In this document: piece by piece, positions 1 through 36,446 of the stretch
How positions within the stretch are numbered: position 1 is the first letter of the stretch
How the letters are laid out: each line of letters starts with the position of its first letter
NCBI GenBank assembly: GCA_031459715.1
Contig: JAVKIA010000004.1
Span: forward strand, 2,755 to 66,754
Length of the DNA stretch: 64,000 nucleotides
Source of the DNA: Candidatus Humicultor tengchongensis
Lineage (GTDB): Bacteria > Sysuimicrobiota > Sysuimicrobiia > Sysuimicrobiales > Humicultoraceae
Direction: 5' to 3'
Program-made: the position numbers and the translations under genes
The notes under the pieces: model-generated
Database searches by the model: none
What the model saw: the letters and a program-made list of their open reading frames with translations, nothing else
What the model was told of the DNA's origin: nothing

Positions 1-800
1 CCGGCCTCCTCCCAAGTCAGGGCCAGGAGCGAGCGCACATCGTCGAGGCGGTCTTCCGCCGTGGGGAAGAACGTCGGCCCTGGCAGGCCCGCTGCGCCCG
101 CGGAGTGTCGCGCGATCAGGGTGAGGGTGCGCTGCGGGCCACCGGCGAGCTCCAGGTGCAGCGTCCCCGTCCAGCGGGTGGCGTCGCTGTTTGGCCGCTC
201 GCCAGAGGTGCCCAGCACCTCTGCGCCGAGCGCGATCCGGCCCCCGGGCCAGACGCGTCCCAGGCGAAGACGCGCTCCGGCGCTCCCGAAGCTGCCGCCT
301 CCCACGGAGTAGCCGGACCGCGCGGACGATCGCGTCCGCACCGAGATCACCCCGCCCAGCGCGTTCCCATAGATCGCGGAGTAGGACCCGCGCAGCACCT
401 CTATCCGTTCCACCTCCGCGAGGGAGATGGTGCTCAGGTTGACCCCGAACTGGGCGGTGGCGTTCAGGGGCACGCCGTCGACCAGCACCAGCACCTGCTG
501 TGGGGTGGAGCCGCGGATGGAGGCCTGGGTGAACCCACCGGGGCCACCGCCGGCGGCGCGGGTGGAGACCTCCGCCAGGAAGCGCAGGGCGTCGCCCAAC
601 GTGGCGAACCCCAGCCGGCGCAACTCCTCCCCGTCCAGGACGCTGACGAGGGCGGGCGTCGTGGTCGAGAGCTGGGGACGAAGGCCGGGGACGGTCACCT
701 CCTCCCCCTCGAACGTGGGGACCTGGCCCCGGGCCGGGGCCACCAGGAAAAGCAAAATACCCACGACGGCAATCCCCGTGGGCACAGTACATAGAGCCAT
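1..800 (-). CDS. TonB-dependent outer-membrane receptor, BtuB-like, N-terminal part (runs off the left edge; 3' end outside window)
   Basis: Not in the ORF track because there is no stop in the window. My own translation of the minus strand from the ATG at 800-798 gives a signal peptide (MALCTVPTGIAVVGILLFLVAPARGQV), a TonB-box-like EEVTVPG, and a classic plug domain (…DGVPLN…IERIEVLRGSYSAIYGNALGGVISV…). A Shine-Dalgarno GGAAAGGGGAG lies upstream. It is preceded by a cobalamin riboswitch. Confidence 0.8.
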   Translation of the reverse strand, partial: MALCTVPTGIAVVGILLFLVAPARGQVPTFEGEEVTVPGLRPQLSTTTPALVSVLDGEELRRLGFATLGDALRFLAEVSTRAAGGGPGGFTQASIRGSTPQQVLVLVDGVPLNATAQFGVNLSTISLAEVERIEVLRGSYSAIYGNALGGVISVRTRSSARSGYSVGGGSFGSAGARLRLGRVWPGGRIALGAEVLGTSGERPNSDATRWTGTLHLELAGGPQRTLTLIARHSAGAAGLPGPTFFPTAEDRLDDVRSLLALTWEEA

Positions 801-820
801 CGGACCCACTCCCCTTTCCG

Positions 821-1000
821 CGAAGGTGTGAGGGCCACGGCGGCAGGCAGGTCTTCTGGCTCCGGTTCATCGCGCGGCCGGCCTTCCCGGGCGGCAGGGT
901 GATCGCCCTCGCCCAGTGGCCCCCTGGCCACACTCCCCGTTACAGCGGCGGGACCGCGCCGGATTCCCTGCGACCTCCGCAAGGCCTGCAGGTCACCGGC
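821..1000 (-). ncRNA. Cobalamin (B12) riboswitch in the 5' leader of the TonB-dependent receptor
   Basis: The minus-strand sequence contains GGGAAUCCGGCGCGGUCCCGCCGCUGUAACGGGG, then GGCCACUGGG, CCCGGGAAGGCCGG and GAAGACCUGCC. These match, in the same order, the conserved blocks of the E. coli btuB leader as I recall them (AGGGAAUCCAGUGCG…GCGGUAAGG, GCCAUUC…GGGAAGUC, GAAGACCUGCCGGCC). The element ends about 20 nt before the SD/ATG of the receptor gene. Boundaries are approximate. Confidence 0.75.
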
Positions 1001-1158
1001 TTCCCTCTTCCGACGGAGCGGCGCTCCGTCAACCTGCGCCGTTCACTGGGGTATTCCCGGCCGGGTGGCCGATTCCTCCCGGGGAGTTATCTCAGCGTGG
1101 ATGTGGCGCATCACCGTGCCCGTTGACGACTTGCCCGTAGGGAACCGCCTCGCCTGGG

Positions 1159-2088
1159 TCAGATGCGCGGGCGGAAAGAGACGCGCAGGGGGCCGACGGT
1201 GTATACGTCCTGCGTCACCACCACGTCCACACGAACTGGGCGGCGGGCCTGGGTGATGGCGCTCACCACGCGGCGCAGGGCGTCCAGCTCCGTCTCCACC
1301 AGCGGGGGGTCGGTGATGCGGGCGAACGGCGGCGAGAGGACCTCGCGGCGGGCGGCGGGGGCAGACTGGTCGAGCAGTTCCAGCAACTGTCGCCCCACCT
1401 CGTCACGGGAGCGCCGACCGTCGACCTGACCCGACCCCAGCACCCGGCCCCGCGGGAAGACCAGCCGGTTGTCCACCAGTTGAACCGAGACCTCCAGGGG
1501 CTCGCCCACCAGGGTGTTCTCGTTGGCCACGATGCGCACCACGGTCTCCCCTGGGTGCTGCTTGACCAGCTCCGCCACCTGGTCCCAGGTCAGGGCGGGA
1601 GGAAAGAGGCGCAGCACCGACCCCGTCGTCCCGTCGACGCCGATGCCGCTGGCCAGCGCCTGGTCCACCGCGCGCAGGCGCAGCGTGTCCACCTCTACCG
1701 CCACCTGTACCAGGGGGAGGCGGGCGTCGATGATCCCCCGCAGCACCTCCTGGTTGCGCAGGTAAGCTATGTCTCCCTGCTTCAACTGCTTCAGCCGACT
1801 CTCCGCCCCCCGGATTTCCCCCTGCAGGCTGTCGAGCTGGGCCTGGAGGCTGCGGAACTGGAAGAGCGCCTGGCGGGCGTCCTGCGAGACCAGCAGCACC
1901 GCGGCCACGGTGAGGACGGTGATGAGCATGCCGGTGGCCACAGTGATGATCTGGGCGGTGTGGCGGGGGCGCAATCCGAGGAGGGTGAGCCGGCGCCGCC
2001 CGATGGCCCGGCCGACCAGGTTTCCCACGAAGGCGATCCCCCCGCTAACCAGGATGAGCAGGGGAACCAGGATGATGCCGAACTCCAT
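1159..2088 (-). CDS. DUF3084-like membrane protein (N-terminal TM helices plus coiled-coil); last gene of the long minus-strand operon
   Basis: 309-aa ORF with N-terminal hydrophobic segments (MEFGIILVPLLILVSGGIAFVGNL…, ITVATGMLITVLTVAAVLLV) followed by a coiled-coil stretch (LQAQLDSLQGEIRGAESRLKQLKQ). Its start overlaps the stop of the upstream GT2 gene at 2088. Confidence 0.5.
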   Translation of the reverse strand: MEFGIILVPLLILVSGGIAFVGNLVGRAIGRRRLTLLGLRPRHTAQIITVATGMLITVLTVAAVLLVSQDARQALFQFRSLQAQLDSLQGEIRGAESRLKQLKQGDIAYLRNQEVLRGIIDARLPLVQVAVEVDTLRLRAVDQALASGIGVDGTTGSVLRLFPPALTWDQVAELVKQHPGETVVRIVANENTLVGEPLEVSVQLVDNRLVFPRGRVLGSGQVDGRRSRDEVGRQLLELLDQSAPAARREVLSPPFARITDPPLVETELDALRRVVSAITQARRPVRVDVVVTQDVYTVGPLRVSFRPRI

Positions 2089-2777
2089 CAGCGGGAGACC
2101 AGCAGGCGGCCGAGCAGCCGCAGGTAGGCGATGACCTCTCGCGGTGAGAGTTTGCTGCGCCCGGTGGCGCGGTCGGTGAAGGTGTAGCCCACCTCCACCA
2201 CGGTCAGCCCGGGGTTGCGCGCCAGGATCTCCAGCAGGATCTTGAACCCCAGGCCCCAGTAGTCGCCGGCGAGCACCTCACGGCGTGCGGCGAAGTAGCC
2301 CGAGAGCGGGTCGCGCACAGCCAGGCGCAGGAGGAGGCGTGCTCCGGCCGTCGCCACCATGCTGGCCAGGCGCCGCCAGGCGGGCCACCGCTGGATCCTC
2401 CCGCCCGGCACGTAGCGCGAGGCCACCGCCAGATCCGCGCCTCTCTGCACCGCCGCCACCAGGGCCGGCAGGACCTCCGGAGGGTGGGAGCCGTCGCAGT
2501 CCATCACCGCGACCACCGGCGCGGAGGCGACCGCCGCTCCCGCCAGCACCGCCGAGGCCAGCCCCGCCTTCCCCGGCCGGCGGATCACACGTATGGGCAC
2601 GGGACCATCCGCGGCCAGGGCCGCGGCCACCTCCGCCGTCCCGTCGGGGGAGGCGTCGTCCACGACGATCACCTCCAGGTCCATCACCGGGACCAGCGGA
2701 CGCAGGGCGGCCACCAGCCGGGGCAGGGCCTCTCGCTCGTTGTAGGTGGGCAGGATCAGGGCGGTCCGGGCCGTCAT
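2088..2777 (-). CDS. GT2 polyprenol-phosphate glycosyltransferase (Dpm1/Ppm1/ArnC-like)
   Basis: The true start is the ATG at 2777 (MTARTALILPTYNEREALPRLV…); the 292-aa track ORF carries an N-terminal extension. It has a DxD-type motif (VIVVDDASPDGT), a CDGSHPP motif and …SRYVPGG…, typical of dolichol-phosphate mannose synthase and ArnC. ATGA overlap with the upstream GT39 stop (2774-2777). Confidence 0.8.
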   Translation of the reverse strand: MTARTALILPTYNEREALPRLVAALRPLVPVMDLEVIVVDDASPDGTAEVAAALAADGPVPIRVIRRPGKAGLASAVLAGAAVASAPVVAVMDCDGSHPPEVLPALVAAVQRGADLAVASRYVPGGRIQRWPAWRRLASMVATAGARLLLRLAVRDPLSGYFAARREVLAGDYWGLGFKILLEILARNPGLTVVEVGYTFTDRATGRSKLSPREVIAYLRLLGRLLVSR

Positions 2778-4420
2778 GGCGAGGCGCACGGAAGGGGCTG
2801 CGCCGTCCGCAGCACAAGCAGCTCGCCCCTCGATGCCATCGGTACCAGCTCCCCGGCAAAGGCCCGCCGCGCCCAGCGGTCGTAGTCGCCGCGCTCGAGT
2901 ACCAGGAAGGCGCGTCCCGGGCCGCACAGTGCCCGCCGGGCTTCCGCCTCGCGAGGCGCGACCCACCGGACCGGGTGCCCGCTGTAGAAGACCAGGGAGG
3001 CCCGATCGCTCAGGCCGGCAGCGACGATGCGGTCACCCGGCTGGATCCGGGCCCCCAGTACCAGGGCCAGCGGCTTCATCGGCTTGAGGGTCTCCGCCGC
3101 AGGGAGGACGACGAAGACCAGGACCCCCAGGGTGACCGCCATGGTGGTAACCAGGGCGGCCAGAGCAGGCGCGTGCCTCCGCCAGGCCATCAACCCCGCT
3201 GCCACCGCCACGCCCCCGACCACCGGGAGGGCCAGCAGGCGGAGCTGCAGCCGCAAGGAGGCGTAATGCGCCGGTGATTGCCGCGCGCCCAGCACTGCCA
3301 CAGCCACGACCAGAAACCCGGCAACGGACAGCAGCACCGCGCCGCTCCAGCGCAGGAGGCCATCGGCCCGGGGGTCGCCCTCCCACAGCGCAGCAGCACA
3401 CAGGCGGGCGACGGCGACGGCGGCCACCGGCAGGAGAGGGAGGATGTAGTTAGGCAGCTTCGTACCCGCGGCGGAGTAGAACAGGAGCACAGTCCCCATC
3501 CACAGCAGCAGGAGGAGGCTGCTGTCCTTCTGGCGGGCCCTCCGCCAGTGGTAGACGCAGGCTGAGGGCAGCAGCGCGCTCCAGGGAAAGGCGCCGGCGG
3601 CCAGCACGGGCAGGTAGTAGTACCAAGGCCCGGGCTGGTTCTCCACGACGCCGAAGAAGCGGGTGAACAGGTAATAGCCCACCGCCGTGCGCAGGAACGC
3701 CCGGCCGTGGAGGGCGGTCTCGATGCCGTACCAGGAGAGGCCGATCAGGCCGTAGAGGAGCAGGCCCTCCCAGGGAAGCTCCCGCAGGCGCTCCCGAAGC
3801 CTTCCCCGCACCAGCCACCAGATCCCCAGCGCCATCCCCGGCAGCAGCAGGGCGATCGGACCTTTGGTCAGCGTCCCCAGGCCAGCCCAGACGAACAACC
3901 AGCGGTAGGCGCTCCTCCGATCCGGCCCGCTCCTGGCCTGCTCCGCCGCCACCGCCATCGAGAGTGCCAGAAGCATGAAGACCACAAGCGGGACGTCGAA
4001 GACGGCCATGCGGGACAGCAGGAAGTACTCCAGCATGGTCATCAGGATCAGCCCGGCCAGCAGCCCCGTGCGCAGGTCATAAAACCGGCGGGCAAGCAGC
4101 ACGGTAACGAGCACGCCGGAGGCCCCAAAGAGCGCCGACCAGATCCGCGCGGTGAACTCCGTGAAACCAAACAGAGCACCGGTGGCGGCAACCAGCCACA
4201 TATACAGAGGCGGGTGGACGAACCAGGGTGCGCCGTTGCTGTACAGGGTGAAGGGATCTCCCCGCTGGACGATGGCGCGGGCCACCTCGGTGTATTTCGC
4301 CTCGTCCTGGTCCCACAGGCTCCCCTGCCCCAGGGCAACAGTGAAGAAGGCCAGGGCGGCCGCCGCCAGCAGCAGGGGAGCAGCCCGCTCCGGCAGCCGG
4401 ACGGTCAGCGCACCCGCCAC
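2774..4420 (-). CDS. ArnT/PMT-family (GT39/GT83) polytopic membrane glycosyltransferase using a polyprenol-phosphate-sugar donor
   Basis: The C-terminal ~550 aa of the 780-aa track ORF show multiple TM helices and PMT_2/ArnT-like motifs (…DEAKYTEVARAIVQRGD…, YYYLPVLAAGAFPWS, KLPNYILPL). The N-terminal Pro/Arg/Gly-rich 230 aa is an artefactual extension. My proposed start is the GTG at 4420 (VAGALTVRLPERAAPLLLAAA…), 16 nt inside the LptFG 3' end; the start is uncertain. Confidence 0.7.
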   Translation of the reverse strand: MAGALTVRLPERAAPLLLAAAALAFFTVALGQGSLWDQDEAKYTEVARAIVQRGDPFTLYSNGAPWFVHPPLYMWLVAATGALFGFTEFTARIWSALFGASGVLVTVLLARRFYDLRTGLLAGLILMTMLEYFLLSRMAVFDVPLVVFMLLALSMAVAAEQARSGPDRRSAYRWLFVWAGLGTLTKGPIALLLPGMALGIWWLVRGRLRERLRELPWEGLLLYGLIGLSWYGIETALHGRAFLRTAVGYYLFTRFFGVVENQPGPWYYYLPVLAAGAFPWSALLPSACVYHWRRARQKDSSLLLLLWMGTVLLFYSAAGTKLPNYILPLLPVAAVAVARLCAAALWEGDPRADGLLRWSGAVLLSVAGFLVVAVAVLGARQSPAHYASLRLQLRLLALPVVGGVAVAAGLMAWRRHAPALAALVTTMAVTLGVLVFVVLPAAETLKPMKPLALVLGARIQPGDRIVAAGLSDRASLVFYSGHPVRWVAPREAEARRALCGPGRAFLVLERGDYDRWARRAFAGELVPMASRGELLVLRTAQPLPCASP

Positions 4421-5475
4421 AGGAGGGCACCCCCCAGCGAGGCCAGCAATAGGTTGGGCGTCCACGCGGCCAGCAGGGGCGGCAGGCGACCGGTCTGGCC
4501 CAGGGCAAGTGTGGCGTTGGTCAGCAGGTAGTAAATCAGGATGATCAGCACGGTCAGGCCCAGGCCGATGGAGGGCCCGCCGCGGTGCGGACGCAGCCCC
4601 AGGGGGATGGCCAGGAGGGCAAAGGGCAGGCTGCTGCTGGGCAGCGCCATCCGGGCGTGCATCCACACCAGGTACTCGACGACGACCTCCCCCGTACGCC
4701 GCAGGACGGCGATATAGGCGCGCAGCTCCCGGATGGTCATCTGCGAGGGGTCTTTGTGCTGGGCCAGGATCTCCCGCGGCGTGCGCCGGATCTGGGCCTC
4801 CAGGCGGTGGAAGCTCATCTCCACCGGTGGGCTCGCCGAAAGCAGGTGGACGGTCCCCTCCTCGAACTCCCACCGGCCGCCGCTGTAGCGGGCCCGCCTG
4901 GCCTCGATGACCCGGACCAGGCGCTCCGCCTCGAACTGGTTGACCACCAGCCCTTCCAGGACCTCGCCGCCCCCGGCCATGCGGCGGGCGTAGTAGACGG
5001 AGACGCGGGAGCCTTCCACCTCGCGGAAGAGGACGTAGCCGCGTGGAGACGGGGGCTGCCTGGTGGCGCGGCTTATCTCCTGGGCGAAGCGATCCTCCGC
5101 CAGGGGTACCGTCCACTCGCCAAGCACCGCTCCCCCTACCGCCACCAGCGCCGCCACCACCAGGACCGGCAGGCTCATCCTTCCCAGGCTGATCCCTCCT
5201 GTGCGCATGGCCACCACCTCGTTGTGCTCTGAGAGGCGGCCCGCGGTCATCAGCACCGCCAGCAGCAGGGCCATGGGCAGGGAGGCCACGGCCAGGTTGG
5301 GCAGCCGCAGCAGGAGCAGCCGCAGGACGGTGGGGAGGGCGATGTGCTGGCTGACGGCGATCCGCACCAGCCCGAAGATGTCGTTCACCGCCAGCAGGAC
5401 GGTGAACAGGCCCACCCCAAAGAGGAAGAGGCCCAGCACCTGCTTCAGGATGTACCGATCCAGGATGGAGATCAC
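4405..5475 (-). CDS. lptF: LPS export ABC permease, LptF/LptG (YjgP/YjgQ) family
   Basis: 356 aa beginning MISILDRYILKQVLGLFLFGVGLFTVL…, with a periplasmic beta-jellyroll insert followed by C-terminal TM helices, typical of LptF/G. 4-nt overlap with upstream lptB. Confidence 0.8.
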   Translation of the reverse strand: MISILDRYILKQVLGLFLFGVGLFTVLLAVNDIFGLVRIAVSQHIALPTVLRLLLLRLPNLAVASLPMALLLAVLMTAGRLSEHNEVVAMRTGGISLGRMSLPVLVVAALVAVGGAVLGEWTVPLAEDRFAQEISRATRQPPSPRGYVLFREVEGSRVSVYYARRMAGGGEVLEGLVVNQFEAERLVRVIEARRARYSGGRWEFEEGTVHLLSASPPVEMSFHRLEAQIRRTPREILAQHKDPSQMTIRELRAYIAVLRRTGEVVVEYLVWMHARMALPSSSLPFALLAIPLGLRPHRGGPSIGLGLTVLIILIYYLLTNATLALGQTGRLPPLLAAWTPNLLLASLGGALLWRVR

Positions 5476-6188
5476 AGCTGGAAGGTCTCTCCCAGGTAGA
5501 AGCGCCGTGCCTCCTCGCTCTCCATGATCTCCCGCGCTGTACCCGCCAGGAGGACGGAGCCCTGGTGGATGATCATGGAGCGGTCGGTGATGGCCAGGGT
5601 CTCCCGCACGTTGTGGTCGGTGACCACCACACCCAGGCCGCGGGCCCGCAGACCGCGCACCACCTCCTGGAGCTCCGACACGGACTTGGGGTCGATTCCG
5701 GTAAACGGCTCGTCCAGCAGGATGTAGGACGGCTCCATGGCCATGACCCGGGCGATCTCCACGCGCCGCCGCTCCCCTCCGGAAAGGGAGACTCCCACCT
5801 GGCGGCGCAGGTGGGTGAGGCCGAACTCCACCAGCAGCCGCTCCACCGTCTCCCGCCGCGCGGCGCGCGGCCGCCCGGCGGCCTCCAGGACGATGAGGAT
5901 GTTCTCCTCCACGGTGAGCCCGCGGAAGATCGAGGGCTCCTGGGCCAGGTAGCCGATGCCCAGGCGCGCCCGCCTGTGCACGGGCAGGTGAGTCAGCTCC
6001 AGACCGTCCAGCCAGACCTCCCCGGCATTGGGCCGTACCAGGCCTACCATCATGTAAAAGGTCGTGGTCTTCCCGGCGCCGTTGGGCCCCAGCAGGCCGA
6101 TGATCTCACCCCGCTCCACCTCCAGCGTCACGCCGTTGACCACGGTGCGCGCCCCGTACCGTTTGACCAGGTTGCGTGTCCGCAGCAC
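5472..6188 (-). CDS. lptB: LPS export ABC transporter ATP-binding protein LptB
   Basis: 238 aa with Walker A GPNGAGKTT, signature LSGGERRRVEIARV, Walker B ILLDEPF and an LptB-like C-terminus. Confidence 0.85.
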   Translation of the reverse strand: MLRTRNLVKRYGARTVVNGVTLEVERGEIIGLLGPNGAGKTTTFYMMVGLVRPNAGEVWLDGLELTHLPVHRRARLGIGYLAQEPSIFRGLTVEENILIVLEAAGRPRAARRETVERLLVEFGLTHLRRQVGVSLSGGERRRVEIARVMAMEPSYILLDEPFTGIDPKSVSELQEVVRGLRARGLGVVVTDHNVRETLAITDRSMIIHQGSVLLAGTAREIMESEEARRFYLGETFQL

Positions 6189-6207
6189 GGCCGACCACTC
6201 CCCGGGG

Positions 6208-7149
6208 TTACTGCCCCGGCCCGCCCAGAGTCAGACGGGGACCGCCGGTTGCGGTCACCCGCCGCGCCCGCAGCTCCACTCTCACCACCTCGGCGGTCAG
6301 GGTATGGGAGCCGCGGCGCACCACCACCCCGCCGCTCAGGGTGACCACTCCGGCACGCCCGTCCGCTACCGCCAGCGGCGCGCGCGCCAGCAGCTCCCCG
6401 GCGGTGAGGCGGACGTCGTCCACAGCCGTCGCCCGCTCCTCCGCAAGGCGGGCCTCTACCCTACCCGCCTGCAGGCGCCCCTCCGGAAGGGTGAGGTCCG
6501 CGTCCCCGGCGGCGGTCCCCACCTCCGCCGCCGCGTCAAACTCCAGCCGCCGCCCTGCCAGCCGCATTTGCCCGAAGGTGAGGAGGGGACTGCCCTCGGC
6601 CATCACCCGCCTCCTGGCCAGGTCCACCTCGATCCGCCCCGCCGTCAGACGCACCAGGTCGGCGCCGCGCTGCGCGGTCACCTCCACGCCCTCCTCAGCC
6701 ACGACAAGGTTGCTCCGCAGCCAGGCTGCGGTACGGGACGCCCGCAGGACCAGCGTCTCCTGCCGCAGGACCACGCCGCCGGACGCTTCCACCAAACCCC
6801 GCCGCTCATCGTAGCGAACCTCCGGGGCCTCCAGCCTGGCCGGGCCCCAGGCCACTACCACCGGGAAGCCTCGCAGGAGCCAGGTGCCGGCAGCACGGTC
6901 GTACTCGGCGTACGAGGCGCCGGTGACCTCTACGGGCGGTCCTCCCTGGGCCGCGGCGGGCTGGCCTGCGGCAAACGGCGCCCTCGCCGCAGCAGAGGGG
7001 CTGGCGGCACAGGTCAGGGTGGCCGCGAGCACCAGGGTGGCGGCCAGGGCCAGGGTGCCAGTGAGGGTCAGGGCCGCACCCGGGAGTGGAGCAGCGGCCA
7101 CAGCGGTGCGCGACGAGACTGCGGGGGCGGGGAAAGGGCGACCGCGCAC
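6208..7149 (-). CDS. LptA/OstA-like periplasmic LPS-transport protein (start uncertain)
   Basis: The C-terminal ~250 aa of the 435-aa track ORF has a signal-like segment (AVAAAPLPGAALTLTGTLALAATLVLAATLTCAAS) followed by an OstA-fold-like beta-rich region (…LRGFPVVVAWGPARLEAPEVRYDERRGLVEASGGVVL…, …VRLTAGELLARAP…). A candidate GTG start at 7149 abuts the LptC-like stop. Confidence 0.55.
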   Translation of the reverse strand: MRGRPFPAPAVSSRTAVAAAPLPGAALTLTGTLALAATLVLAATLTCAASPSAAARAPFAAGQPAAAQGGPPVEVTGASYAEYDRAAGTWLLRGFPVVVAWGPARLEAPEVRYDERRGLVEASGGVVLRQETLVLRASRTAAWLRSNLVVAEEGVEVTAQRGADLVRLTAGRIEVDLARRRVMAEGSPLLTFGQMRLAGRRLEFDAAAEVGTAAGDADLTLPEGRLQAGRVEARLAEERATAVDDVRLTAGELLARAPLAVADGRAGVVTLSGGVVVRRGSHTLTAEVVRVELRARRVTATGGPRLTLGGPGQ

Positions 7150-7151
7150 AG

Positions 7152-7766
7152 CTACTCCCGCACAGTCACGCGGATGTTCCCGCTCAGCCTGGCCCTGCGT
7201 AGCTCGATGTCGCTCTCCAGGCGGTCGGCGCGGACGGTAATCCGGTCCTGCACCAGCACCACGCCGCCGGTCGCCACTAGGAGGCGGCGAGCGGGCAACC
7301 ACTGCACGCGCCCCGCCGCCAGAGACCGTCCCTGGGCACGGGCGCGTACCTCGCCCCACAGCGTCAGTACCTGCGCCCCAATAGAGAAGACGGCGCTGGC
7401 CGCGGCAACCGTCAGCACCGCCCTGCCCCGCTCGTAAAATGTTCCGTCCACGCCCTCCAGCCGCACCTCCTGTCGGGCGGCATCCGTCTCCAGAGTCCTG
7501 GCCCGCAGCTCCCACCGGATAGTGCCCGCCGCATCACCTCCGGTGAGGCGGCCGCCCACAACGGAGACCTCCGGCGGGGCAGTTTCAGAGGTGGGCGCGG
7601 GCGCACCGCGTACCGAGCCAGGCGCAGGCGTGGAAACAGGCGCAGGTGGGGAGGCGCCGGACGACGGGCCGGGATCGCCGGCGGACCCTCCGCGGCCCAG
7701 CCAGGTCAGGCCGGCCAGCCCCAGCACGGCGACCACCGCTGCGGCCGTCCACCACCTCACGCGCAT
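7152..7766 (-). CDS. LptC-like membrane-anchored OstA-fold protein
   Basis: The ATG at 7766 gives MRVRWWTAAAVVAVLGLAGLTWLG (a TM anchor), a Pro/Ser-rich linker, then a beta-rich domain ending …DRITVRADRLESDIELRRARLSGNIRVTVRE, which is LptC/LptA-like. It sits between lpxB and lptA/lptB. Confidence 0.55.
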   Translation of the reverse strand: MRVRWWTAAAVVAVLGLAGLTWLGRGGSAGDPGPSSGASPPAPVSTPAPGSVRGAPAPTSETAPPEVSVVGGRLTGGDAAGTIRWELRARTLETDAARQEVRLEGVDGTFYERGRAVLTVAAASAVFSIGAQVLTLWGEVRARAQGRSLAAGRVQWLPARRLLVATGGVVLVQDRITVRADRLESDIELRRARLSGNIRVTVRE

Positions 7767-7824
7767 CTGTGCCGGGGCTCCGTCTCCCCGCCTGAGCCGG
7801 CTCGTCGCCCTCTCCCCGCAGTCG

Positions 7825-9012
7825 TCAGATCGTCTGTATGGTACTCGAGCCCTCTCTGCCCAGCAAGCGCGCCAGGCGGAGGACCTCTGCTGCGGCGCGC
7901 TCCGCAGCGCCACCGTCCGCCAGCCCCAGGCGAAGCGCCCGCAGCTCCTCCTGCTGGCGGGTGCGCCGCGGCGTATCCGCCAGCCAGTCCGCTAGCGTCG
8001 CGGCCAGACGTCGGGGCGTCAGAGCGTCCTGCAGCAGCTCCGGCATCACCTCCCGTCCGGCCAGGAGGGAAGGCAGGCCGGCCCACTGCACAGCTGCGAT
8101 CCGCCTGGCTATCCAGTAGTCCAGGCGGGAGGTCTTGTAGATGACGACGCCGGGGATGCCCAGGCAGAGCGCTTCCAGCGTGGCGGTCCCTGAGGCGATC
8201 ACAGCGAAGTCGGAGGAGGCCAGGGCGTCGTATCCCGCCTGCGTCCCGCCCTCCACGACGGTGACTTGAAGACCCGCAGGCCGCAGCGCGGCTTCTACCT
8301 GCGTCCTGTAGTGGGGCGCGGCCAGCAGGAGGACAGCACGCAGCGCAGGGAGGCGCGCCCGAACGGAGGCCAGGGCGCCGGCGATGACGGGGAGGTGGCG
8401 GCGCAGCTCCTGGCGGCGGCTTCCTGGCAGAAGCGCCAGCAGCGGCGCCTGCAGGGGAATCCCCAGGCGACTGCGGACTACCTCGGGCGGTGCAGACGGC
8501 CGGACGCGGTCAACGGCGGGATGGCCGACGTAGCGGACGTCGGCGCCCGCCGCGCGGTACGCCTGGGCCTCGAAGGGAAAGGCCGCCAGCAGGCGCAGGC
8601 CCAGCTTGGCCACCCCACAGGCCCGCCGCCCTCGCCGTGTGGAGACCATGGGTGGCAGGAAGTAGGCGACGGGCACCCTGCCCTGAAGGCGACGGGCCAG
8701 GGCCAGGTTGAAACCGGGGAAGTCGATCAGGACCACCGCCCGGGGAGCGGCGGCGGCGATCGCCCGATGCACCCGGGAGAGCCGGGCCAGAAAGGCCGGC
8801 AGGCGAGGGAGCACCTCCAGCCACCCCACCACGCCCCACCCGGAGCTGTCCAGCAGCAGGCGCGCGCCCGCCGCAGCCATCCTCGGCCCTCCCACCGCTG
8901 GCAGATCCACATCGGGACGGAAGCGGCGCAGAGCGGCGACCAGGTCAGCCCCGTAGATGTCTCCCGAGACCTCTCCCGCCACCAGGAAGATACGGGGCCC
9001 CACTGCGGCCAT
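7825..9012 (-). CDS. lpxB: Lipid-A-disaccharide synthase LpxB
   Basis: From the ATG at 9012: MAAVGPRIFLVAGEVSGDIYGADLVAAL…, with GT19 motifs (…FLPPMVSTRRGRRA…, …GTATLEALCLGIPGVV…). Confidence 0.85.
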   Translation of the reverse strand: MAAVGPRIFLVAGEVSGDIYGADLVAALRRFRPDVDLPAVGGPRMAAAGARLLLDSSGWGVVGWLEVLPRLPAFLARLSRVHRAIAAAAPRAVVLIDFPGFNLALARRLQGRVPVAYFLPPMVSTRRGRRACGVAKLGLRLLAAFPFEAQAYRAAGADVRYVGHPAVDRVRPSAPPEVVRSRLGIPLQAPLLALLPGSRRQELRRHLPVIAGALASVRARLPALRAVLLLAAPHYRTQVEAALRPAGLQVTVVEGGTQAGYDALASSDFAVIASGTATLEALCLGIPGVVIYKTSRLDYWIARRIAAVQWAGLPSLLAGREVMPELLQDALTPRRLAATLADWLADTPRRTRQQEELRALRLGLADGGAAERAAAEVLRLARLLGREGSSTIQTI

Positions 9013-9076
9013 GGACTGCCCTGGGACAGTGTGACCGCTCACCTCTGCCTGGGGCCCAGGGGGAACGAGGGCCCGC

Positions 9077-9913
9077 TCACTCGGCGCCCGACGCCCAGCG
9101 AACCACGCCGCGCGGCCGCTCGCGGGCGGCGCGGAGGAAGGCCACCAGCTCCCCCACCAGCGGGTGATCGCCCAGCTCGGCCTGCAACCGCTCCAGCGCC
9201 TGACCCAATCCCAGCGCGGACTGGTACAGGATGCGAAATGCCCGGCGCAGCACGGCGCGGTCGCCCGCACTGATTCCCTGCCGCTGCAGGCCGACGCGGT
9301 TCAGACTGCGGCAGCGCGCGGGACGCCCTTCCGCCAGCATGAACGGCGGGCAGTCCTGGCGCAGCAGGCTGAATCCGCCGATCATGGCCAGGCGGCCGAT
9401 GTGCACGAACTGGTGGATCCCGGTCATCCCGCCGATGTACGCGCCGTCGTCCACCTGCACGTGCCCGGCCATCTGCACGCCGTTGACCACCACAACCCGA
9501 TCCCCCAGACGGCAGTTGTGCCCGATGTGGGCGGAGCACATGATGAGGCACTCGTTGCCCACCACGGTGGCCGCACCCTCCCCGGTGGCCCGGCTGATGT
9601 TCACGTACTCCCGGATGCGGTTGCGGTCGCCGATCACCAGGTAGCTGCGCTCGCCCTGGAAGTGCCGGTCCTGCGGAATGGTGCCCAGGGTGGCACCGCT
9701 GGAGATCTCGTTGTCCATCCCGATGCGCACCCCGTCCTCGATGACCACGTGGGGGCCGATGCGGGTCCCCGGGCCGACGACCACGTCGCTGCCGACCACG
9801 GCGTAGGGCCCTACCACCACGCCGGGGTGCAGGCGGGCGCCGGGATGGACCACGGCGGTCGGGTGCACCTCCACCGAGTCCCGAGCATGATCCCTTCCCC
9901 GGGGGGTGCTCAT
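9077..9913 (-). CDS. lpxA: UDP-N-acetylglucosamine O-acyltransferase LpxA
   Basis: 278 aa with left-handed beta-helix hexapeptide repeats ([26 protein letters not shown]…) and an LpxA-like C-terminal helical domain. Confidence 0.85.
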   Translation of the reverse strand: MSTPRGRDHARDSVEVHPTAVVHPGARLHPGVVVGPYAVVGSDVVVGPGTRIGPHVVIEDGVRIGMDNEISSGATLGTIPQDRHFQGERSYLVIGDRNRIREYVNISRATGEGAATVVGNECLIMCSAHIGHNCRLGDRVVVVNGVQMAGHVQVDDGAYIGGMTGIHQFVHIGRLAMIGGFSLLRQDCPPFMLAEGRPARCRSLNRVGLQRQGISAGDRAVLRRAFRILYQSALGLGQALERLQAELGDHPLVGELVAFLRAARERPRGVVRWASGAE

Positions 9914-9929
9914 AGTGAGTGCAACCCCA

Positions 9930-10829
9930 TCACCGCGCCTCCCCCGGCCGTGGCCCCAGCGGCGAGGCCTCTACGGCGAACACGCTGATCCCCGCCTCCT
10001 CCGCACGGGCGGCCAGCCGCAGCCGCTCCAGGACGATGGTGCGGAAGGCCTCCACCGCCAGCACCCGTGCCCGTCCCGCCCGCATCACCTCCACGGTTTC
10101 CGGACCCACGGTGGGAAGATCGAAGCGGGGGTCTTGCTGCGGCCGGCTCACCTTCACCACTACTGCGCCCGGTGCCATGGCCGTGCCCCGCCGGATGGCG
10201 GCATCGGTCCCCTCCGCCGCCTCCACGGCCAGGATCGCCCCGTGCTTGAGAACCACGGTCTGGCCCACTTCGTGGGCCGCCAGTGCACGGCCCACGGCCA
10301 GGCCGATGCGCACGTCGCGCTCTTCCGCAGGGCTAAGTGGGGTGCCGGCCAGCAGCCCGGGCGGGGCCACAAGGTCGGGGACGTAGGCGAGCTGGTCCAG
10401 GACGCGGATCCCCTGCGCGGCCAGGCGGCGGGCCAGGGCGTCCAGGATCTGCTGGTCACCCCGTTCCGGCAGTCGCTCCAGGAACCCGCGCAGGTCGGAC
10501 CCGGAGGCGAGCAGCCGCGCCACCATCTCTCCGCGGCGAAACCGCCCGGCCAGCAGTACCTCGCGCACTGCATGCCGGTGCCACAGGGCCTCCAGCTCCT
10601 CCCACTGCTCCGGGGCCAGCCTGGCGAAGACGTGGGCCAGGTGCTCCAGAGCCGGAGTCTCCCCCGCCATCTGCACGCAGACGAGGCGGCGGCCCCGCGC
10701 CCGCACCGCCCTGGCCAGCACCTCTGGCAGGCGCCCCTCGCCCGCCAGCAGTCCCACGGCACCGCGCAGTGCCTCCCCACCGCCTGGGGCGGCCCTGGGG
10801 AATCGTCTCTGGGGCCGGGCCGCGGTCAC
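9930..10829 (-). CDS. lpxI: UDP-2,3-diacylglucosamine hydrolase LpxI (DUF1009)
   Basis: DUF1009/LpxI-like core ([27 protein letters not shown]…[25 protein letters not shown]). The start GTG at 10829 overlaps the fabZ stop in a GTGA overlap that I checked in the DNA. The 397-aa track ORF is an N-terminally over-extended artefact. Confidence 0.7.
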
Positions 10830-11332
10830 CTCTCGCCGACCAGCGGCTCCGCGGAGGGTGCGGGCGCCACCTGTTCCTCCGGCAGGAGGGCAGTCGCCGT
10901 CTCTTCCCGGGGAAGGGCAAACGCGATCTCCGCTTCTGCCGCCACCTCCTCCCCCACCCGGGCCACTCCCCAGACCTTTCCCAGCCGCCCGCGCAGGGCC
11001 CGCACCTCCACCTCGATGCGCAGGGTGTCGCCGGGTACCACCGGGCGGCGGAAACGACAGCGGTCGATCCCGGCCAGGTAGGCCAGGTGCCCGCGCAGGC
11101 GGGGGACGTTGAGGATCAGGCACGCCGCCACCTGGGCCATCGCCTCCACCACCAGCACCCCCGGCATAACCGGATAGCCCGGGATGTGACCGGCGAAGAA
11201 GGGTTCGTTGACGGTCACGTTCTTGATGCCGACGATGCGCCGCTCCTCCATCTCCACGATCCGGTCCACGAGGAGAAAGGGGTAGCGGTGGGGCAGGATG
11301 GCAAGGATCTGCTCAAGGCTCAGTGCGGGCAT
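10826..11332 (-). CDS. fabZ: 3-hydroxyacyl-ACP dehydratase FabZ
   Basis: From the ATG at 11332: [60 protein letters not shown]…, the canonical FabZ hot-dog fold. 20-nt overlap with the lpxC 3' end. Confidence 0.9.
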
Positions 11333-12149
11333 TTCTCTCCCCCCAGCGGCGCGCAATCTCCCGGGCCAGGGCCACGTGCAAGGCGTGGCCTCCGCGGACG
11401 ACCTCCACGTATCCATGCAGGCGAGCACCCAGCAGGGCCAGGTCCCCCAGCAGGTCGAGGATCTTGTGCCGGACCGGCTCGTCGGCGAACCGGGGCGGGT
11501 TCAGGTAGCCGCCCGCGGCAATGACCAGGACGTTCCCCGGCCCGGCCCCCCGAGCCAGTCCCGCGGCGCGCAGCGTCGCGGCTTCGTCAACAAATCCCCA
11601 GGTCCGCGCCGGAGCAATCGCGGTGGCGAACACCGAGAGGTCGGCGGTGGCCACCTGACGGCCCAGGGGCGGCGGCAGGTCCACGATGTAGCGGACGCGG
11701 AGCTCGCCGCCCGCCCGGGTGACGGCGCGGGCATCCCCGACCGTCACCTCCACCTCGCCGAGTTCGATCACCCGGGCAGGCTCTTCCTGCTCCACGATGC
11801 CGGCCCCGGCCAGCGCCTCCACGTACCCGGCCGCGCTGCCGTCGAGGGCAGGCAGCTCCGGCCCTTCCACCTCCACCTGCAGGTTGTCGATGCAAAGACC
11901 CGCCGCCGCCGCCAGCAGGTGCTCCACGGAGGCCACGGTCACGCCGTCTCCCAGGGTGACCCCGCGGCGCGTGCTGCGCACGTTCTCCAGTGTCGCCCGA
12001 AGGGCGCCAGGGCCGAGGTCGCAGCGGGAGAAGATGACACCCGCACCGGGAGGCGCGCCCAGAAGGCGCACGCGTACCGCCGCGCCGCTGTGTACCCCCA
12101 CGCCACTTAGGGAGACGGCTCTAGTGATGGTGCGCTGGCGGATGGGCAT
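11313..12149 (-). CDS. lpxC: UDP-3-O-acyl-N-acetylglucosamine deacetylase LpxC
   Basis: From the ATG at 12149: [29 protein letters not shown]…, with LpxC motifs (…[18 protein letters not shown]…, …[14 protein letters not shown]…). Confidence 0.85.
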
Positions 12150-12165: not shown

Positions 12166-13968
12166 CTACTCCTTCGGTCGCAGCAGGAGGCGCACAGGGT
12201 AATAGGAGCCGGCCGCGGGCATGGTAACGACGCCGACCTGCACGCTCTGCCCAGCCGGCACGGTGAGGGTACCAAGGACGCGCTCCTCGCCCGGCCGGTA
12301 GATGGCGATCTCCACCGGGCGGCCATCCACCAGGAAGGTTCCGCGCGCCGGACCGCCGGCGGCGACGGCCACCAGCTCCGCCTGCACCTCGGTCGGCCCG
12401 CCGGCCACTGTGAGCAGCAGGCGGTAGACGACGCCGTAGTCTCCCACCAGCGGCTCGGCCGTGCGCACGTCCTGCAGTCCGGCCGCCGCCCCCAGGTCCA
12501 CCAGGGGCACCGGCCCGCCCAGCTCCACCCGTCGATGGACGGTCACCGTGGGCAAGGGGAAGACGCCCCGGGGATGGGGGTAGGCCACCTGGTACACGGG
12601 CAGGGGGACCGTGCCCTCCAGCAGCCAGGGGAGGCGGACTTGCACCCGGACCTCGAGCTCCTCTCCCCGCAGCAACTGGAGCTGCAGGATACCCGAGACC
12701 AGCTGCCGGGGAGCCATCGTCTGGACGGTGAAGGCATAGGCGGAGTTTGGCGGAACCTCCAGCACGTAGCCCCGGCCGGCAGCCAGGTTCCGCAGGAAGC
12801 GCGCCGCGGCGGCATGCCCCACAAACAGAGAATCGGGGGAGGGACCGGCCAGGCCACTGATCAGCAGCATCTCTGAGGGCTGCGTGCTGCGGTTCCACAG
12901 CATAACGGAGAGGATGCGAGGGCACGCCGGGGTCCCGTTCATGTGGTGGTAGAGCAGGCGGATCGGGTGGCGCGCGTCTACCGCTTCGGAGAAGAGGATC
13001 CCGTCGGCGTCCACGACCTCGGGTCGGTTGCTCACTAACAGCAGTGCCGGATCCGCCACCTGCACCCGTTCCCGCAGCACAACCACGCGCGCCACCCCGT
13101 CCACCGGCAGCGCATATGGGCTGCGTACCACCACCGGGACGGCCAGCTCCACCCGGTCGGCGTCCGCGGCCATCCCCTCCAGGGACGGGAAGGGACCCAC
13201 GGCCAGCGTGGCCCCGGGCCCCCGGCGCACCACCTGGTCGATGCGCCGCCGTACCGCCTCCCTGATCAGTGCCGCATCCGTCAGGTCGCCGCTGACCCGT
13301 ACCGTAACCTCCTCGGGGATGGTTCCGGCAAGCGGTCGCACCACCACCGGCAGCAAGACCCGCCCTCCTCCCACGGCCACCGGCACCACCGTGGAGCCCA
13401 CCGCACGGGCCTCCACCACCACAGTGCCTCCTTCCACCCGCACAGAAGCGATGCGCCGGTCGAAAGGCCCAAGCCTCACCGCTCCCGGGAGGAAGGCCTG
13501 GACGGAGACGCTTGCCCTCTCTCCGGGCGAAAGCCGCAGCAGCGGCGGAAACAGACGGACGGTGTTGCGGGCCAGGGCCTGCTGCAGCCGCGCCGCCCAC
13601 TGCGCGGCCAGCGCCTCCGGGGTGGTCCGGTTGAGCCGCGCCAGCTCTCCGTCGGCAGTGACCAGGTGCCGCTCGTTCACCAGCAGGTCCGCGGCTCCGG
13701 GACGGGGGCGCACGGCGACGGTGTATGGGCCCCCCGCCGCTACCAGCGCGCCGAGTCGGCGCACCACTTCCGCCGCCCGCAGCGCCGCCCCCGGCCCGCG
13801 CACCCGTAGCACCACCACCTCCTGCAGGACGACCGCCACCGCAGGCTCCGCACCGGTCTGCGGGAGCAGACGCACCGGAGCCTCCGCCCTCCCCCCGGCG
13901 GCGAGGAGGGTGAGGCTCACCGTGCAGGCCAGGAGGGTCGTCAGAGGCAGCCGCAGGGACAGCATCAC
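12166..13968 (-). CDS. Hypothetical secreted protein (600 aa) inserted between lpxD and lpxC
   Basis: N-terminal signal peptide ([30 protein letters not shown]), then a long beta-rich, Val/Arg/Pro-rich sequence with no motif I recognise. Its coordinate spans overlap lpxD by 4 nt upstream and leave 16 nt before lpxC downstream, so it appears to sit in the lpx operon. Confidence 0.6.
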
Positions 13969-15005
13969 CGCTTCGAGCGGGAGCGCGCGCGCCGGGTCGC
14001 CAGCTCAGCCAGGCGCCGTTGCAGCGCCTCAAATCCGGCGAAAAGCTCGGGCAGCCGCCGCAGGTATGCCTGCACCCGCAGCTCCTGCCGGTGCGGCCAG
14101 GCCGGGAAGCCGGAGACGACCTGCCGCGCGGGGATGTTCTTGGTCACCCCGGCCTGAGCCAGCACCGTGGCTCCGGCGCCGATGCGGGTGTGGTCCCGCA
14201 CTCCCACCTGCCCGGCCAGGACAGCGCCGTCCTCCACGGTCACGCTGCCGGCCAGGCCCACCTGGCCGGCGATCAGCACCCCGCGGCCGATGCGCACGTT
14301 GTGGGCCACCTGCACCAGGTTGTCGATCTTGGTGCGCGCCCCGATGCGCGTCTCCCCCAGGGTGCCCCGGTCCACCGCGGTGTTGGCTCCGATCTCCACG
14401 TCGTCCTCAATGACCACCCGGCCCAGGTGAGGGATCTTCACCGGCCCGCTCTCGCCCTGCGCATAGCCAAACCCGTCGCTACCCACCACCACCCCCGGGT
14501 GAAGGATGACGCGGTGGCCGAGGACGCAGCCGGCGCGCACGGTCACCTGGGGACCGAGGATACAGTCCTCCCCCACACGCGCGTCGCTCTCCACCACGGT
14601 TCCGGCCAGCAGCGCGCTGCGCGCCCCCACGCGCGCCCGATCGCCAAGCACCACGTGCGGCCCCACGTGCACGCCGTCCCCCAGGACGACATCGGTCCCC
14701 AGCACCGCGGTGGGATGGACTCCCGGAGGATAGGCAGGCGCGGGGGAGAAGAGGGCCAGCAGGCGGGCAAAGGCCAGGCGGGCGTTAGCCGCGCGGATCG
14801 CCGGCTTTCGCCCGGGAGGCAGCTCCGCAGGGAGGAGGACGGCGGCAGCGGCGCTGGCCTCGGCCGCGCGCAGGGCGTCGGCATCAGCGGCGTAGACGAT
14901 GGTCCCCGGGCTCGCCGCCTCGGGCTCCCCCACCCCGCTGATCTCCACGGCGGGGTCGCCGGCCAGAGTACCGCCCAGGTGAGTGGCCAGGTCGCCCAGT
15001 CTCAT
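13965..15005 (-). CDS. lpxD: UDP-3-O-acylglucosamine N-acyltransferase LpxD
   Basis: 346 aa with an N-terminal LpxD domain ([25 protein letters not shown]…) followed by extensive hexapeptide repeats. Confidence 0.85.
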
Positions 15006-15011
15006 CGCCGG

Positions 15012-15449
15012 TCACCGCAGTCTGGCGATCACCTCTTCGGTGATGTCGACGGTACGGCCGGGGAGAGCGTACACCACGGGGCTCTTCACCAGCACGGCGC
15101 CCCGCAGCCCTCGCTCCCGAACTATCTGGCCCACCACGTCGCGGATCTCCTTGTTCAGCCGGTCCTCCAGCTCCCCCTTCAGCTGCGCCAGCTCCCGCAG
15201 GTACTGGTTGCGCCGCGCCTCCAGATCCGCGGGGGAGAGCTGCCCTGCTAGCAGCTGCAGATCCAGGGCCATGGCCTTCTCTCGCTCGTCCAGCTGTCGC
15301 TGGTAGGAGAGCGCCCGAACGCTCTCGTTGAGGATGCGGTTTGTGTCTACGAGGGCGAGCCTGCCCCCGCCGCAGGCAGCCAGCCCCACGGCGGCCGAAA
15401 GCAGGAGCACCATGGCCGTGACCATCGAGGTGCGGCGCCGCGCAGGCAC
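15012..15449 (-). CDS. OmpH/Skp-family periplasmic chaperone, possible lipoprotein
   Basis: 145 aa with a signal peptide and an LAAC lipobox-like motif, then an OmpH-like coiled coil (…NESVRALSYQRQLDEREKAMALDLQLLAGQL…). Confidence 0.65.
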   Translation of the reverse strand: MPARRRTSMVTAMVLLLSAAVGLAACGGGRLALVDTNRILNESVRALSYQRQLDEREKAMALDLQLLAGQLSPADLEARRNQYLRELAQLKGELEDRLNKEIRDVVGQIVRERGLRGAVLVKSPVVYALPGRTVDITEEVIARLR

Positions 15450-15453
15450 GGTC

Positions 15454-16563
15454 CTACCGCTTCAGCCGGGCGAGCACCTCGGTGGTGAGGTCCTCGCCCG
15501 TCAGGTTGCTCAGGTAGCGGGTCAGCACTACATCGAAGCCCCGGGCGGCAGCCAGGGCGGCCACCTCGATCTTCACGTCGGAGAGGATCACGTCCTCCAG
15601 GCGGGAGCGCTGCTCGGTGAGCGCCTGCCGCTCTGCCAGGAGCTGCTGCTCCCGCTCCCGCAGCCCCTCCGCATACCGGTTCTGGGCGGCGGCCAGCTGG
15701 CCTTCGGCCAGGCTGAGCAGGCGGCGACGGAAGGCCTCCAGCTGCGCCTCGAAGGCCCGCTGCCTGGCCGTCATCAGGCGTCGTGTCCCGGCCTCCAGCT
15801 CCTGCCTCTTTGCCTCCACCATCCGGGCGAACTCTCGCTCCGCCTCCCGCTGCGCCCTGGCCAGCCGGCCGTTGGCCTCGGCCACGCGGGCCTTCTCGAA
15901 GTCGCGCAGGATCACCTCCACCAGCTCAGCCCTGGCGCGGACCTTGGCATCCCGCTCTGTGAGCAGCCGGTCCAGCTCTTCCGTGAGCTGGCGCAGCTCC
16001 TCCTCCGAGGCCACGCCGATGACGGCCGCCTTCAGCCGCAGGTTGGCGATGGGGAAGCGGTACTCGTCCAGGACCTCGGCCTCATAGCGGCGCAGCTCGG
16101 CACGCAGCTCCGCCGCCCGGGCCTCCACCGCCTGTTTCAACTCCGCGTGTATCTGCGCGCGCAGCCGCTCCAGCTTCGCCGTCTGCTCCTCTCGCAGGGA
16201 AGCGGCGTAGCGCTCCAGGGCGGCCTCCTGCCGCTGCCGCAGGGAAGCCATCTCCGCCTGGAACTCCGCCTCCAGGCGCTTGGCCTGGGTGCGCAGCTGC
16301 GCCTCCAGGCGGTCCTGCAAAAGCGGCGGAGCCTGCGGCGGGACGGCGAGCTGCGCCTCCAGGTCGGCCAGCTTTGTATTCAGGGCGTCCAGCTCCGGCC
16401 AGCGTGGATGCGCCCGTGCCACCCGGTCCACGTCCACGACGCCCACACGCAGCCCCCCCCTGCCTGTGGGCGTCGGCTGCGGCCGGACCGCCGCGCCCTG
16501 AGGCCGACAGCCAGCCGCCCCCAGGAACGCCAGGAGCAGGAACACGGAGAGGCGCCGGAGCAT
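15454..16563 (-). CDS. Long OmpH/Skp-like coiled-coil periplasmic protein (369 aa)
   Basis: Signal peptide MLRRLSVFLLLAFLGAAGC, an OmpH-type N-terminus (VGVVDVDRVARAHPRWPELDALNTKLADLEAQ…) and about 250 aa of Arg/Glu/Ala/Leu-rich coiled coil, with a second OmpH-like C-terminal segment (…VKIEVAALAAARGFDVVLTRY…). Confidence 0.6.
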   Translation of the reverse strand: MLRRLSVFLLLAFLGAAGCRPQGAAVRPQPTPTGRGGLRVGVVDVDRVARAHPRWPELDALNTKLADLEAQLAVPPQAPPLLQDRLEAQLRTQAKRLEAEFQAEMASLRQRQEAALERYAASLREEQTAKLERLRAQIHAELKQAVEARAAELRAELRRYEAEVLDEYRFPIANLRLKAAVIGVASEEELRQLTEELDRLLTERDAKVRARAELVEVILRDFEKARVAEANGRLARAQREAEREFARMVEAKRQELEAGTRRLMTARQRAFEAQLEAFRRRLLSLAEGQLAAAQNRYAEGLREREQQLLAERQALTEQRSRLEDVILSDVKIEVAALAAARGFDVVLTRYLSNLTGEDLTTEVLARLKR

Positions 16564-16567
16564 GCGG

Positions 16568-17047: not shown

Positions 17048-17128
17048 CTTTCTCCCTCCCTCCTGGGCCGCCGGTAACTACCGGCGGTCAAACACTCCAA
17101 TTGTAGCCGCCGTCAAGGCCGGCCGCAG

Positions 17129-20331: not shown

Positions 20332-20346
20332 CTCGCTGGATACTGC

Positions 20347-26263: not shown

Positions 26264-26392
26264 CCGCGGGCGCCGGGTTCGGGCCGGCGCAGCACGAAGG
26301 GACGGAGGCGACCGCCCCCGTCCCTAGTGTCCGCAGGCTAACCTTCCCGCCCTCGCCGCCCGGGCGGGGCCGTGCCCGGGCGGCCCGCCGCC

Positions 26393-28225: not shown

Positions 28226-28333
28226 GCTTCCGCGCCGGGTTGGAAAAAAATTCGGGAAGAGAGGACCTCTCCCCTACGCCGCGGACCTGTGCCCCTGGAT
28301 GTCACACCACCGTCACCCCGGCGGGAAACTTTC

Positions 28334-36411: not shown

Positions 36412-36446
36412 CGCGCGTGCGCCGTGATCGATCCGGGTACGTACCC

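Follow-up and report, generated by a model that had tools for sequence, protein, structure and literature searches.

The founding cobalamin riboswitch is the btuB leader of Escherichia coli, which acts on ribosome binding. It uses a kissing loop between L5 and L13, and the tonB gene of E. coli is unlinked to btuB. A riboswitch-controlled, TonB-dependent cobalamin uptake is also known for btuB2 of the cyanobacterium Anabaena sp. PCC 7120 (PMC10878165). True diderm Firmicutes have several TonB systems, nine of them are given in PMC5491611. CSP1-3, now Sysuimicrobiota, is a separate Terrabacteria phylum placed beside Armatimonadota (PMC11604079); B12, TonB, LPS and the outer membrane or cell envelope are unmentioned in the main text of two phylum-level papers on CSP1-3/Sysuimicrobiota.

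The DNA analysed here is a stretch of 64,000 nucleotides, in the following called the window. On its minus strand, a cobalamin riboswitch precedes the gene of a TonB-dependent receptor that runs across the left edge. The locus very probably represents a cobalamin riboswitch, most likely a translational OFF switch, ahead of a BtuB/CirA-type receptor and a dedicated TonB in a diderm, LPS-bearing host of the phylum CSP1-3. Mildly novel are the platform hairpin lacking a kissing-loop partner and the co-regulated, dedicated TonB, and nothing else.

The cobalamin riboswitch aptamer

The original prediction of a cobalamin riboswitch was borne out by the covariance-model search. The Rfam scan of the whole 64-kb window yielded RF00174 (Cobalamin) as the sole riboswitch match, located at 1051-829 on the minus strand with 79.6 bits (E 5.8e-18) against a gathering score of 31.5. 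The match covers positions 1-189 of the 189 model positions, thus it is not truncated. The features of the leader and the adjacent gene are as follows:

829-1051, minus strand: aptamer, RF00174, full length (Rfam)
1032-1042, minus strand: 5' strand of P1, ACGGCGCAGGU (Rfam alignment)
837-848, minus strand: 3' strand of P1, GCCUGCCGCCGU, with one bulged C (Rfam alignment and sequence reading)
846-861, minus strand: B12 box, AGCCAGAAGACCUGCC (Rfam; invariant or nearly so in the leader alignments)
802-836, minus strand: platform hairpin directly 3' of P1, GGCCCUCAC-ACCUUCGCGGAAAGGGGA-GUGGGUCC (conserved linker and individual folds)
822-826, minus strand: invariant CCUUC, proposed anti-Shine-Dalgarno (sequence reading)
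809-814, minus strand: Shine-Dalgarno sequence (SD), GGGGAG, 8 nt before the AUG (sequence reading)
800-798, minus strand: AUG of the receptor (sequence reading)
1-800, minus strand: 5' part of the receptor gene, 266 codons, continuing past the window edge to 598 aa (ORF and domain search)

The core blocks are present in canonical order, with AGCCAGAAGACCUGCC at 861-846 together with GCCACUG, GGGAAGGC and CCGCUGUAAC. The B12 blocks that had been read from the sequence (GGGAAUCCGGCGCG, CCCGCCGCUGUAAC, GCCACUGGG, CCCGGGAAGGCC and GAAGACCUGCC) were all recovered on the minus strand in the order given at that time. The interval 821-1000 first proposed for the element was only partly right: it contains the 3' three-quarters of the aptamer and part of the linker, but misses about 50 nt at the 5' side. 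This outer part, 1001-1051, is the 5' strand of P1 and P2.

Compared to the consensus, the Rfam alignment placed an inserted hairpin of 26 nt in the P4 loop and an extended P5. The P4 insertion and the longer P5 explain that relatives obtained higher scores, up to 122.6 bits. RNAalifold on a MAFFT alignment of 23 aptamers recovered only the invariant core helices and left the other variable helices unresolved, therefore the pairs of P1 were counted explicitly. In 23 divergent leaders, 86.5 % of the P1 cells were paired, compared to 68.2 % in shuffled sets (0 of 500 shuffles reached the observed value) and 31-44 % with the partner strand slid. Both sides had changed in six of the ten pairs. The P1 helix is maintained by compensatory change. 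The aptamer is best explained as a class-I-type cobalamin riboswitch, with a corrinoid as the predicted ligand.

The expression platform

The aptamer had been placed upstream of a Shine-Dalgarno sequence, and indeed the SD at 814-809 and the AUG at 800-798 follow it directly. The aptamer ends only 28 nt before the AUG. The linker in the window reads CUCAC-ACCUUCGCGGAAAGGGGA-GUGGG. Its consensus, CCAC-AC-GCCUUCGNGGC-AGAGGAGGUGGG-N5-8-AUG, is strongly conserved, though the receptors are only 41-77 % identical; the orthologues have GGAGG at the position of the SD in the window. The CCUUC is invariant in 43 of 43 distinct platforms.

The CACAC repeat shifted the MAFFT alignments of the platforms out of register. 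These alignments were not used for pair counts, and individual folds were relied on instead. Each folded alone, most of 26 non-redundant platforms were predicted to form a hairpin of two nested helices. The outer one is CCAC:GUGG; in the inner one, the purines of the SD are paired with the invariant CCUU(C). Folding energies ranged from -11.5 to -18 kcal/mol. With -11.6 kcal/mol, the hairpin of the window consists of the outer helix CUCAC:GUGGG and the inner helix CCUU:AAGG. The mean probability of the SD to be unpaired was 0.20 for 20 leaders, compared to 0.37 with shuffled 5' halves, while the occlusion of the window's own SD was no better than that of its shuffles (0.36 versus 0.34).

A terminator-like site, a stem followed by a U-tract, was not present between aptamer and AUG in the window. 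Thus, with a linker of only 28 nt, an intrinsic terminator is excluded here. Promoter scans identified none. The unconstrained minimum free energy fold of the whole leader did not reproduce the Rfam aptamer and paired the SD with the 3' strand of P1. As evidence for a mechanism, this fold was set aside, being uninformative for a GC-rich riboswitch.

The short spacing, the lack of a terminator and the conserved hairpin of CCUUC and SD make a translational OFF switch the most likely mode of control. We infer a corrinoid as ligand, an OFF type of response, control at translation and a coupling of the aptamer to the hairpin. At sufficient corrinoid supply, the ligand would lock the aptamer including P1. 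The hairpin, beginning one nucleotide past P1, would then hold the SD region, with CCUUC on the SD purines and CUCAC on the GUGGG just 3' of the SD, and ribosome binding and receptor synthesis would fall. When corrinoids are scarce, the SD would be available, the receptor would be made, and corrinoids could be scavenged across the outer membrane. The sequestration of the SD as the OFF step is predicted with a somewhat better than even chance.

The best surviving alternative accepts the riboswitch as real and places the control mainly on the transcript, by Rho-dependent termination, by decay of the mRNA after a block of translation or by an unrecognised terminator. Related leaders of the same receptor family bear on this directly. 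These sister leaders (L056, L063, L066, L067, L072, L073, L075, L076, L078, L079, L081-L083, L089 and L095; e.g., L066 1787-1870) kept the CCUUCG hairpin, but have an outer helix GUAC:GUAC in place of CCAC:GUGG, an exchange of two compensatory pairs. In place of the SD, the hairpin is followed by a GC stem and a U-tract before the receptor, which starts 140-250 nt downstream. The terminator scan was positive for L066 and negative for L073, where the loop of 9 nt exceeds the limit of the scanner. Within a single riboswitch-receptor lineage, translational platforms thus exist beside terminator-type ones, and by the sister leaders this lineage does use transcriptional control. The insignificant SD occlusion for the window's own sequence points in the same direction, and in E. 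coli the btuB mRNA level also responds to B12 (established; cited in PMC10878165). Against this stand the 28 nt in the window, which hold no stem with U-tract, and the position of the SD within the conserved hairpin. A control mainly on the transcript is therefore considered unlikely, and translational control by SD sequestration is retained.

A kissing loop of the L5-L13 type was rejected for this clade. L5 is hypervariable (GAUGCG, AUGC, UACG, GGUU, AAC, long closed stems, often a closed tetraloop) and has no consistent complementarity to the invariant platform loop, CCUUCG. Also rejected was an anti-sequestor formed by GUGUGG of the aptamer and CACAC of the platform, a pairing that is not conserved in the orthologues. 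A complementarity exists between the invariant GCCUUC and an invariant GAAGGC in the aptamer. It suggests a competition model: a ligand-induced burial of GAAGGC would hand the anti-SD GCCUUC to the SD. Covariation for the pairing of GCCUUC with GAAGGC was absent, and the predicted ensemble of the window does not show it. A more elaborate reading would take the GCCUUCG hairpin, common to SD-type and terminator-type leaders and lacking a covarying L5 partner, as a platform without kissing loop, in which GCCUUC is contested by the SD and the GAAGGC of the aptamer and which is coupled to a dedicated TonB, under the same control, for the uptake of corrinoids by diderm Terrabacteria. In its entirety, we regard this reading as improbable.

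The TonB-dependent receptor and its predicted ligand

The fragment of the receptor in the window has a signal peptide and a Plug domain (PF07715, E 4e-26), and TonB-B12 is its top NCBIfam model. The complete gene was found on the contig JAVKJQ010000004.1 (L015), which is 99.98 % identical to the window over 1-12088; a further contig (L016) is 100 % identical over 5.9 kb. An identity look-up by the DUF3084 gene next to the receptor had led to L015 and four more contigs. At 11289-13085 of L015, the intact receptor of 598 aa has a signal peptide and the domains Plug and TonB_dep_Rec_b-barrel. The scores of the intact reading frame, 90.3 bits for Plug (cut-off 23.9) and 121.3 bits for the barrel (cut-off 27), support the claim of a BtuB-like, TonB-dependent receptor with a plug domain; a receptor of this kind implies an outer membrane. 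The result named as speaking against this claim, truncation or pseudogenisation of the receptor, was looked for; on JAVKJQ010000004.1 the gene is intact.

The N-terminus of the receptor contains the conserved motif VPTFEGEEVTVPG, a candidate TonB box. The pattern VPxFExxxVxVPGxR, with EEVTVPG in the window, is invariant across seven orthologues and resembles the box of BtuB. There are 65 complete orthologues, and those with an N-terminally complete match have a size of about 590-611 aa.

The best NCBIfam model for the receptor is TIGR01779 (TonB-B12) with 176.5 bits; next is a haem family with 123.8 bits. The cut-offs of the BtuB equivalogs were missed widely, with 176.5 versus 599.7 bits for TIGR01779 and 107.3 versus 836 bits for NF007926. 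Against the PDB, a receptor profile built from 27 non-redundant orthologues aligned end to end with CirA (238 bits) and BtuB (229 bits) of E. coli, whereas other solved receptors obtained at most 157 bits. By sequence, the protein is placed among the small BtuB/CirA-type receptors. Since BtuB and CirA tie by homology, it is the riboswitch that carries the assignment to corrinoids: the regulation predicts a receptor for corrinoids.

The level scores of BtuB and CirA, the latter a catecholate receptor, the missed equivalog cut-offs and the lack of btuFCD nearby would also fit a receptor that imports a compound other than a corrinoid, such as a siderophore of the catecholate type or a chelate of cobalt; the riboswitch would then link the supply of cobalt or of another compound to the B12 status. 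Cobalamin riboswitches also control cobalt transporters. On the other side, a cobalamin riboswitch precedes every tested member of the receptor family, even at identities as low as about 40 %, as would be expected if the receptor were dedicated to corrinoids, and TonB-B12 is the best curated model. The size and the end-to-end alignment of the receptor match BtuB, and a Fur-linked iron ABC importer is located elsewhere in the window. An import of other compounds is very improbable, and the receptor is best seen as one for corrinoids.

The TonB partner and the conserved module

The gene after the receptor encodes TonB. It is located at 13129-14130 of L015 and its product of 333 aa has a TM helix, a Pro-rich spacer and a TonB_C domain with 51.3 bits (cut-off 24.6). 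The gene starts 43 nt after the stop codon of the receptor, and the terminator scan revealed no terminator-like site between the two genes. Two gene callers differed solely on the start of TonB. Thus, one part of the transport machinery that the original prediction had asked for, TonB, is directly downstream of the receptor, but ExbBD and BtuFCD were not found. Neither the 64-kb window nor the next 8.8 kb past its edge contains these genes, cob genes or genes of B12-dependent enzymes. A single ABC importer is encoded in the window, the Fur-linked one with an SBP_bac_11-type binding protein. On L015, TonB is followed by a RuvX-like gene, an OmpM-like gene and others.

A genome scan detected six orthologous loci with receptors of 51-77 % identity, the closest in 'Armatimonadetes bacterium CSP1-3'. 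A metagenome scan added 78 loci with receptor identities down to about 40 %. All 26 further loci submitted to Rfam had an RF00174 match closely upstream of the receptor orthologue and in the same orientation, including five that the B12-box pattern had missed. Of 85 loci, 73 contained this pattern; the others mostly lacked the upstream sequence. In 48 loci, the receptor is followed on its own strand by a gene with a TonB_C domain; only four loci with at least 1.1 kb of downstream sequence lack such a gene. Riboswitch, receptor and TonB form a conserved module.

The host and its outer membrane

Contigs with 99.98-100 % identity to the window (1-12088 and about 35-46 kb) belong to the metagenome-assembled genomes (MAGs) GCA_031458875.1 and GCA_031458955.1. 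Near-identical Logan contigs were obtained from SRR27730037 and SRR27730042, both within the read set of PMC11604079. Table S2 of that study (Liu et al. 2024, PMC11604079) lists the two genomes as hot-spring MAGs of GTDB p__CSP1-3 with a GC content of 69.6 %. The nearest relative among genomes is 'Armatimonadetes bacterium CSP1-3' with 76 % protein and about 80 % DNA identity and a shared gene order.

The window contains a contiguous supercluster for the biogenesis of the outer membrane:

2774-26323, minus strand: outer-membrane biogenesis supercluster, contiguous
21800-26323, minus strand: TamB
18403-20346, minus strand: BamA
15012-17077, minus strand: three Skp/OmpH genes
2088-2789: GT2 gene after the supercluster

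The order is TamB, a sigma-70 factor, BamA, three Skp/OmpH, LpxD, LpxC, LpxI, LpxA, LpxB, LptC, an LptA-like protein, LptB, LptF/G and a PMT-type glycosyltransferase. The lpt genes are followed on the minus strand by glycosyltransferases and DUF3084, and then by the riboswitch. Beyond the left edge of the window, at a distance of about 2.9-4.3 kb (L015 14960-16393), a protein of 477 aa with SLH domain is encoded two genes after TonB. Its best solved relatives are OmpM1 of Veillonella parvula (8BYS/8BYM, E 1e-19), whose structure identifiers are confirmed in PMC10628300, and SlpA of Deinococcus. By this similarity, the protein is probably an OmpM-type outer-membrane tether and porin. The window carries a diderm LPS envelope locus of the Terrabacteria type.

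The original prediction had considered B12 uptake across an outer membrane to be unusual for a Firmicute background. This view has to be abandoned: the MAGs of the near-identical contigs belong to GTDB p__CSP1-3 and the window holds an LPS and outer-membrane gene set. With this gene set adjoining the riboswitch, an outer-membrane B12 receptor is expected here rather than unusual, and the surprise arose from a wrong taxonomic assumption. A Firmicute host with an unusual outer-membrane B12 uptake is highly improbable: NCBI gives the name 'Firmicutes bacterium' to some CSP1-3 MAGs ('Firmicutes bacterium SpSt-190' for one member in PMC11604079 Table S2), the window has a weak match to a SpoIVB/S55-like peptidase and the layout of its outer-membrane locus resembles that of diderm Firmicutes, but the matching MAGs fall into a phylum-level lineage next to Armatimonadota, the nearest relative with shared gene order is an 'Armatimonadetes bacterium', the LPS, Bam, Lpt and OmpM set is complete, and TonB systems are already known in diderm Firmicutes.

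Other genes of the window

Within the outer-membrane cluster, two open reading frames on the minus strand, 12166-14004 (612 aa) and 17129-18832 (567 aa), have a coding-like GC3 and lie between LpxC/LpxD and Skp/BamA. Pfam yielded no match at E<=1e-5 for either of them; both are candidate envelope proteins of unknown type. Directly upstream of TamB, a protein of 626 aa (26393-28273, minus strand) has a partial match to SpoIVB/peptidase S55 (32 bits, cut-off 25), a sporulation-associated family; the lineage is not known to sporulate.

At 42482-46770, a Fur-family regulator (46291-46770, plus strand) is divergent from an ABC importer with permease, ATPase and a binding protein of the SBP_bac_11 type. 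The region resembles an iron-type uptake system and has no connection to the B12 element. The region of about 35000-41600 on the minus strand encodes a Cys/Met PLP enzyme, a ThiS-like protein, a PALP enzyme with CBS domain, a second PALP enzyme, a JAB-family peptidase and an Rrf2 regulator. This cluster of sulfur-carrier style suggests a ThiS/JAB-dependent synthesis of cysteine or methionine. The sole tRNA in the window is tRNA-Gln(UUG) at 34160-34234 on the minus strand. A SAM hydroxide adenosyltransferase with the N and C domains of SAM_HAT (53499-54479, minus strand) is located among peptidase and DsbD-like genes, and an AdoMet decarboxylase is encoded at 63415-63957.

Significance

A riboswitch-controlled btuB is a textbook case, and the locus alone matters little. 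It adds a predicted scavenging of B12, by way of a dedicated TonB, to what is known of the uncultured phylum CSP1-3/Sysuimicrobiota and could inform the design of cultivation media. The presence of a Terrabacteria-type diderm locus (TamB-BamA-Skp-Lpx-Lpt-OmpM) in CSP1-3 bears on the debate on diderm and monoderm bacteria. One conserved hairpin in translational and in terminator contexts provides a compact comparative set for the coupling of aptamer and platform.

Comparison with known systems

The closest resemblance is to the btuB leaders of E. coli and Salmonella, where an RF00174 aptamer likewise occupies the 5' leader of a gene for a TonB-dependent receptor of some 600 aa. As in these leaders, a hairpin immediately after the aptamer contains the SD, and an OFF logic acting on ribosome binding is expected. 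The receptor of the window aligns end to end with BtuB of E. coli, but it is only a distant relative that misses the equivalog cut-offs. In contrast to E. coli, the TonB gene is co-located downstream of the receptor. An L5 complementary to the platform loop, as used by E. coli btuB, was not found in the leaders studied here, and unlike the aptamers of E. coli and Salmonella, that of the window has extra hairpins in P4 and P5.

With btuB2 of Anabaena, the locus shares a riboswitch-controlled, TonB-dependent uptake in a diderm member of the Terrabacteria, dependent on a TonB (PMC10878165). In Anabaena the riboswitch heads a longer operon including btuFCD-type genes, whereas here it is followed by receptor and TonB only, with no ABC importer nearby. 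The relevant tonB3 of Anabaena is not described as adjacent (PMC10878165).

The envelope genes have their counterpart in the locus of diderm Firmicutes (Negativicutes, Halanaerobiales; PMC5007114), with which the window shares TamB-BamA-three Skp, the lpx genes including lpxI and the lpt genes. The OmpM tether of diderm Firmicutes (PMC10628300) is matched by the SLH-porin (OmpM-like) neighbour. Differences are the phylum, CSP1-3, and the TonB, which is unmentioned for the diderm-Firmicute locus in PMC5007114. Here, a B12-controlled pair of receptor and TonB is positioned between the lpt/glycosyltransferase genes and the OmpM-like gene.
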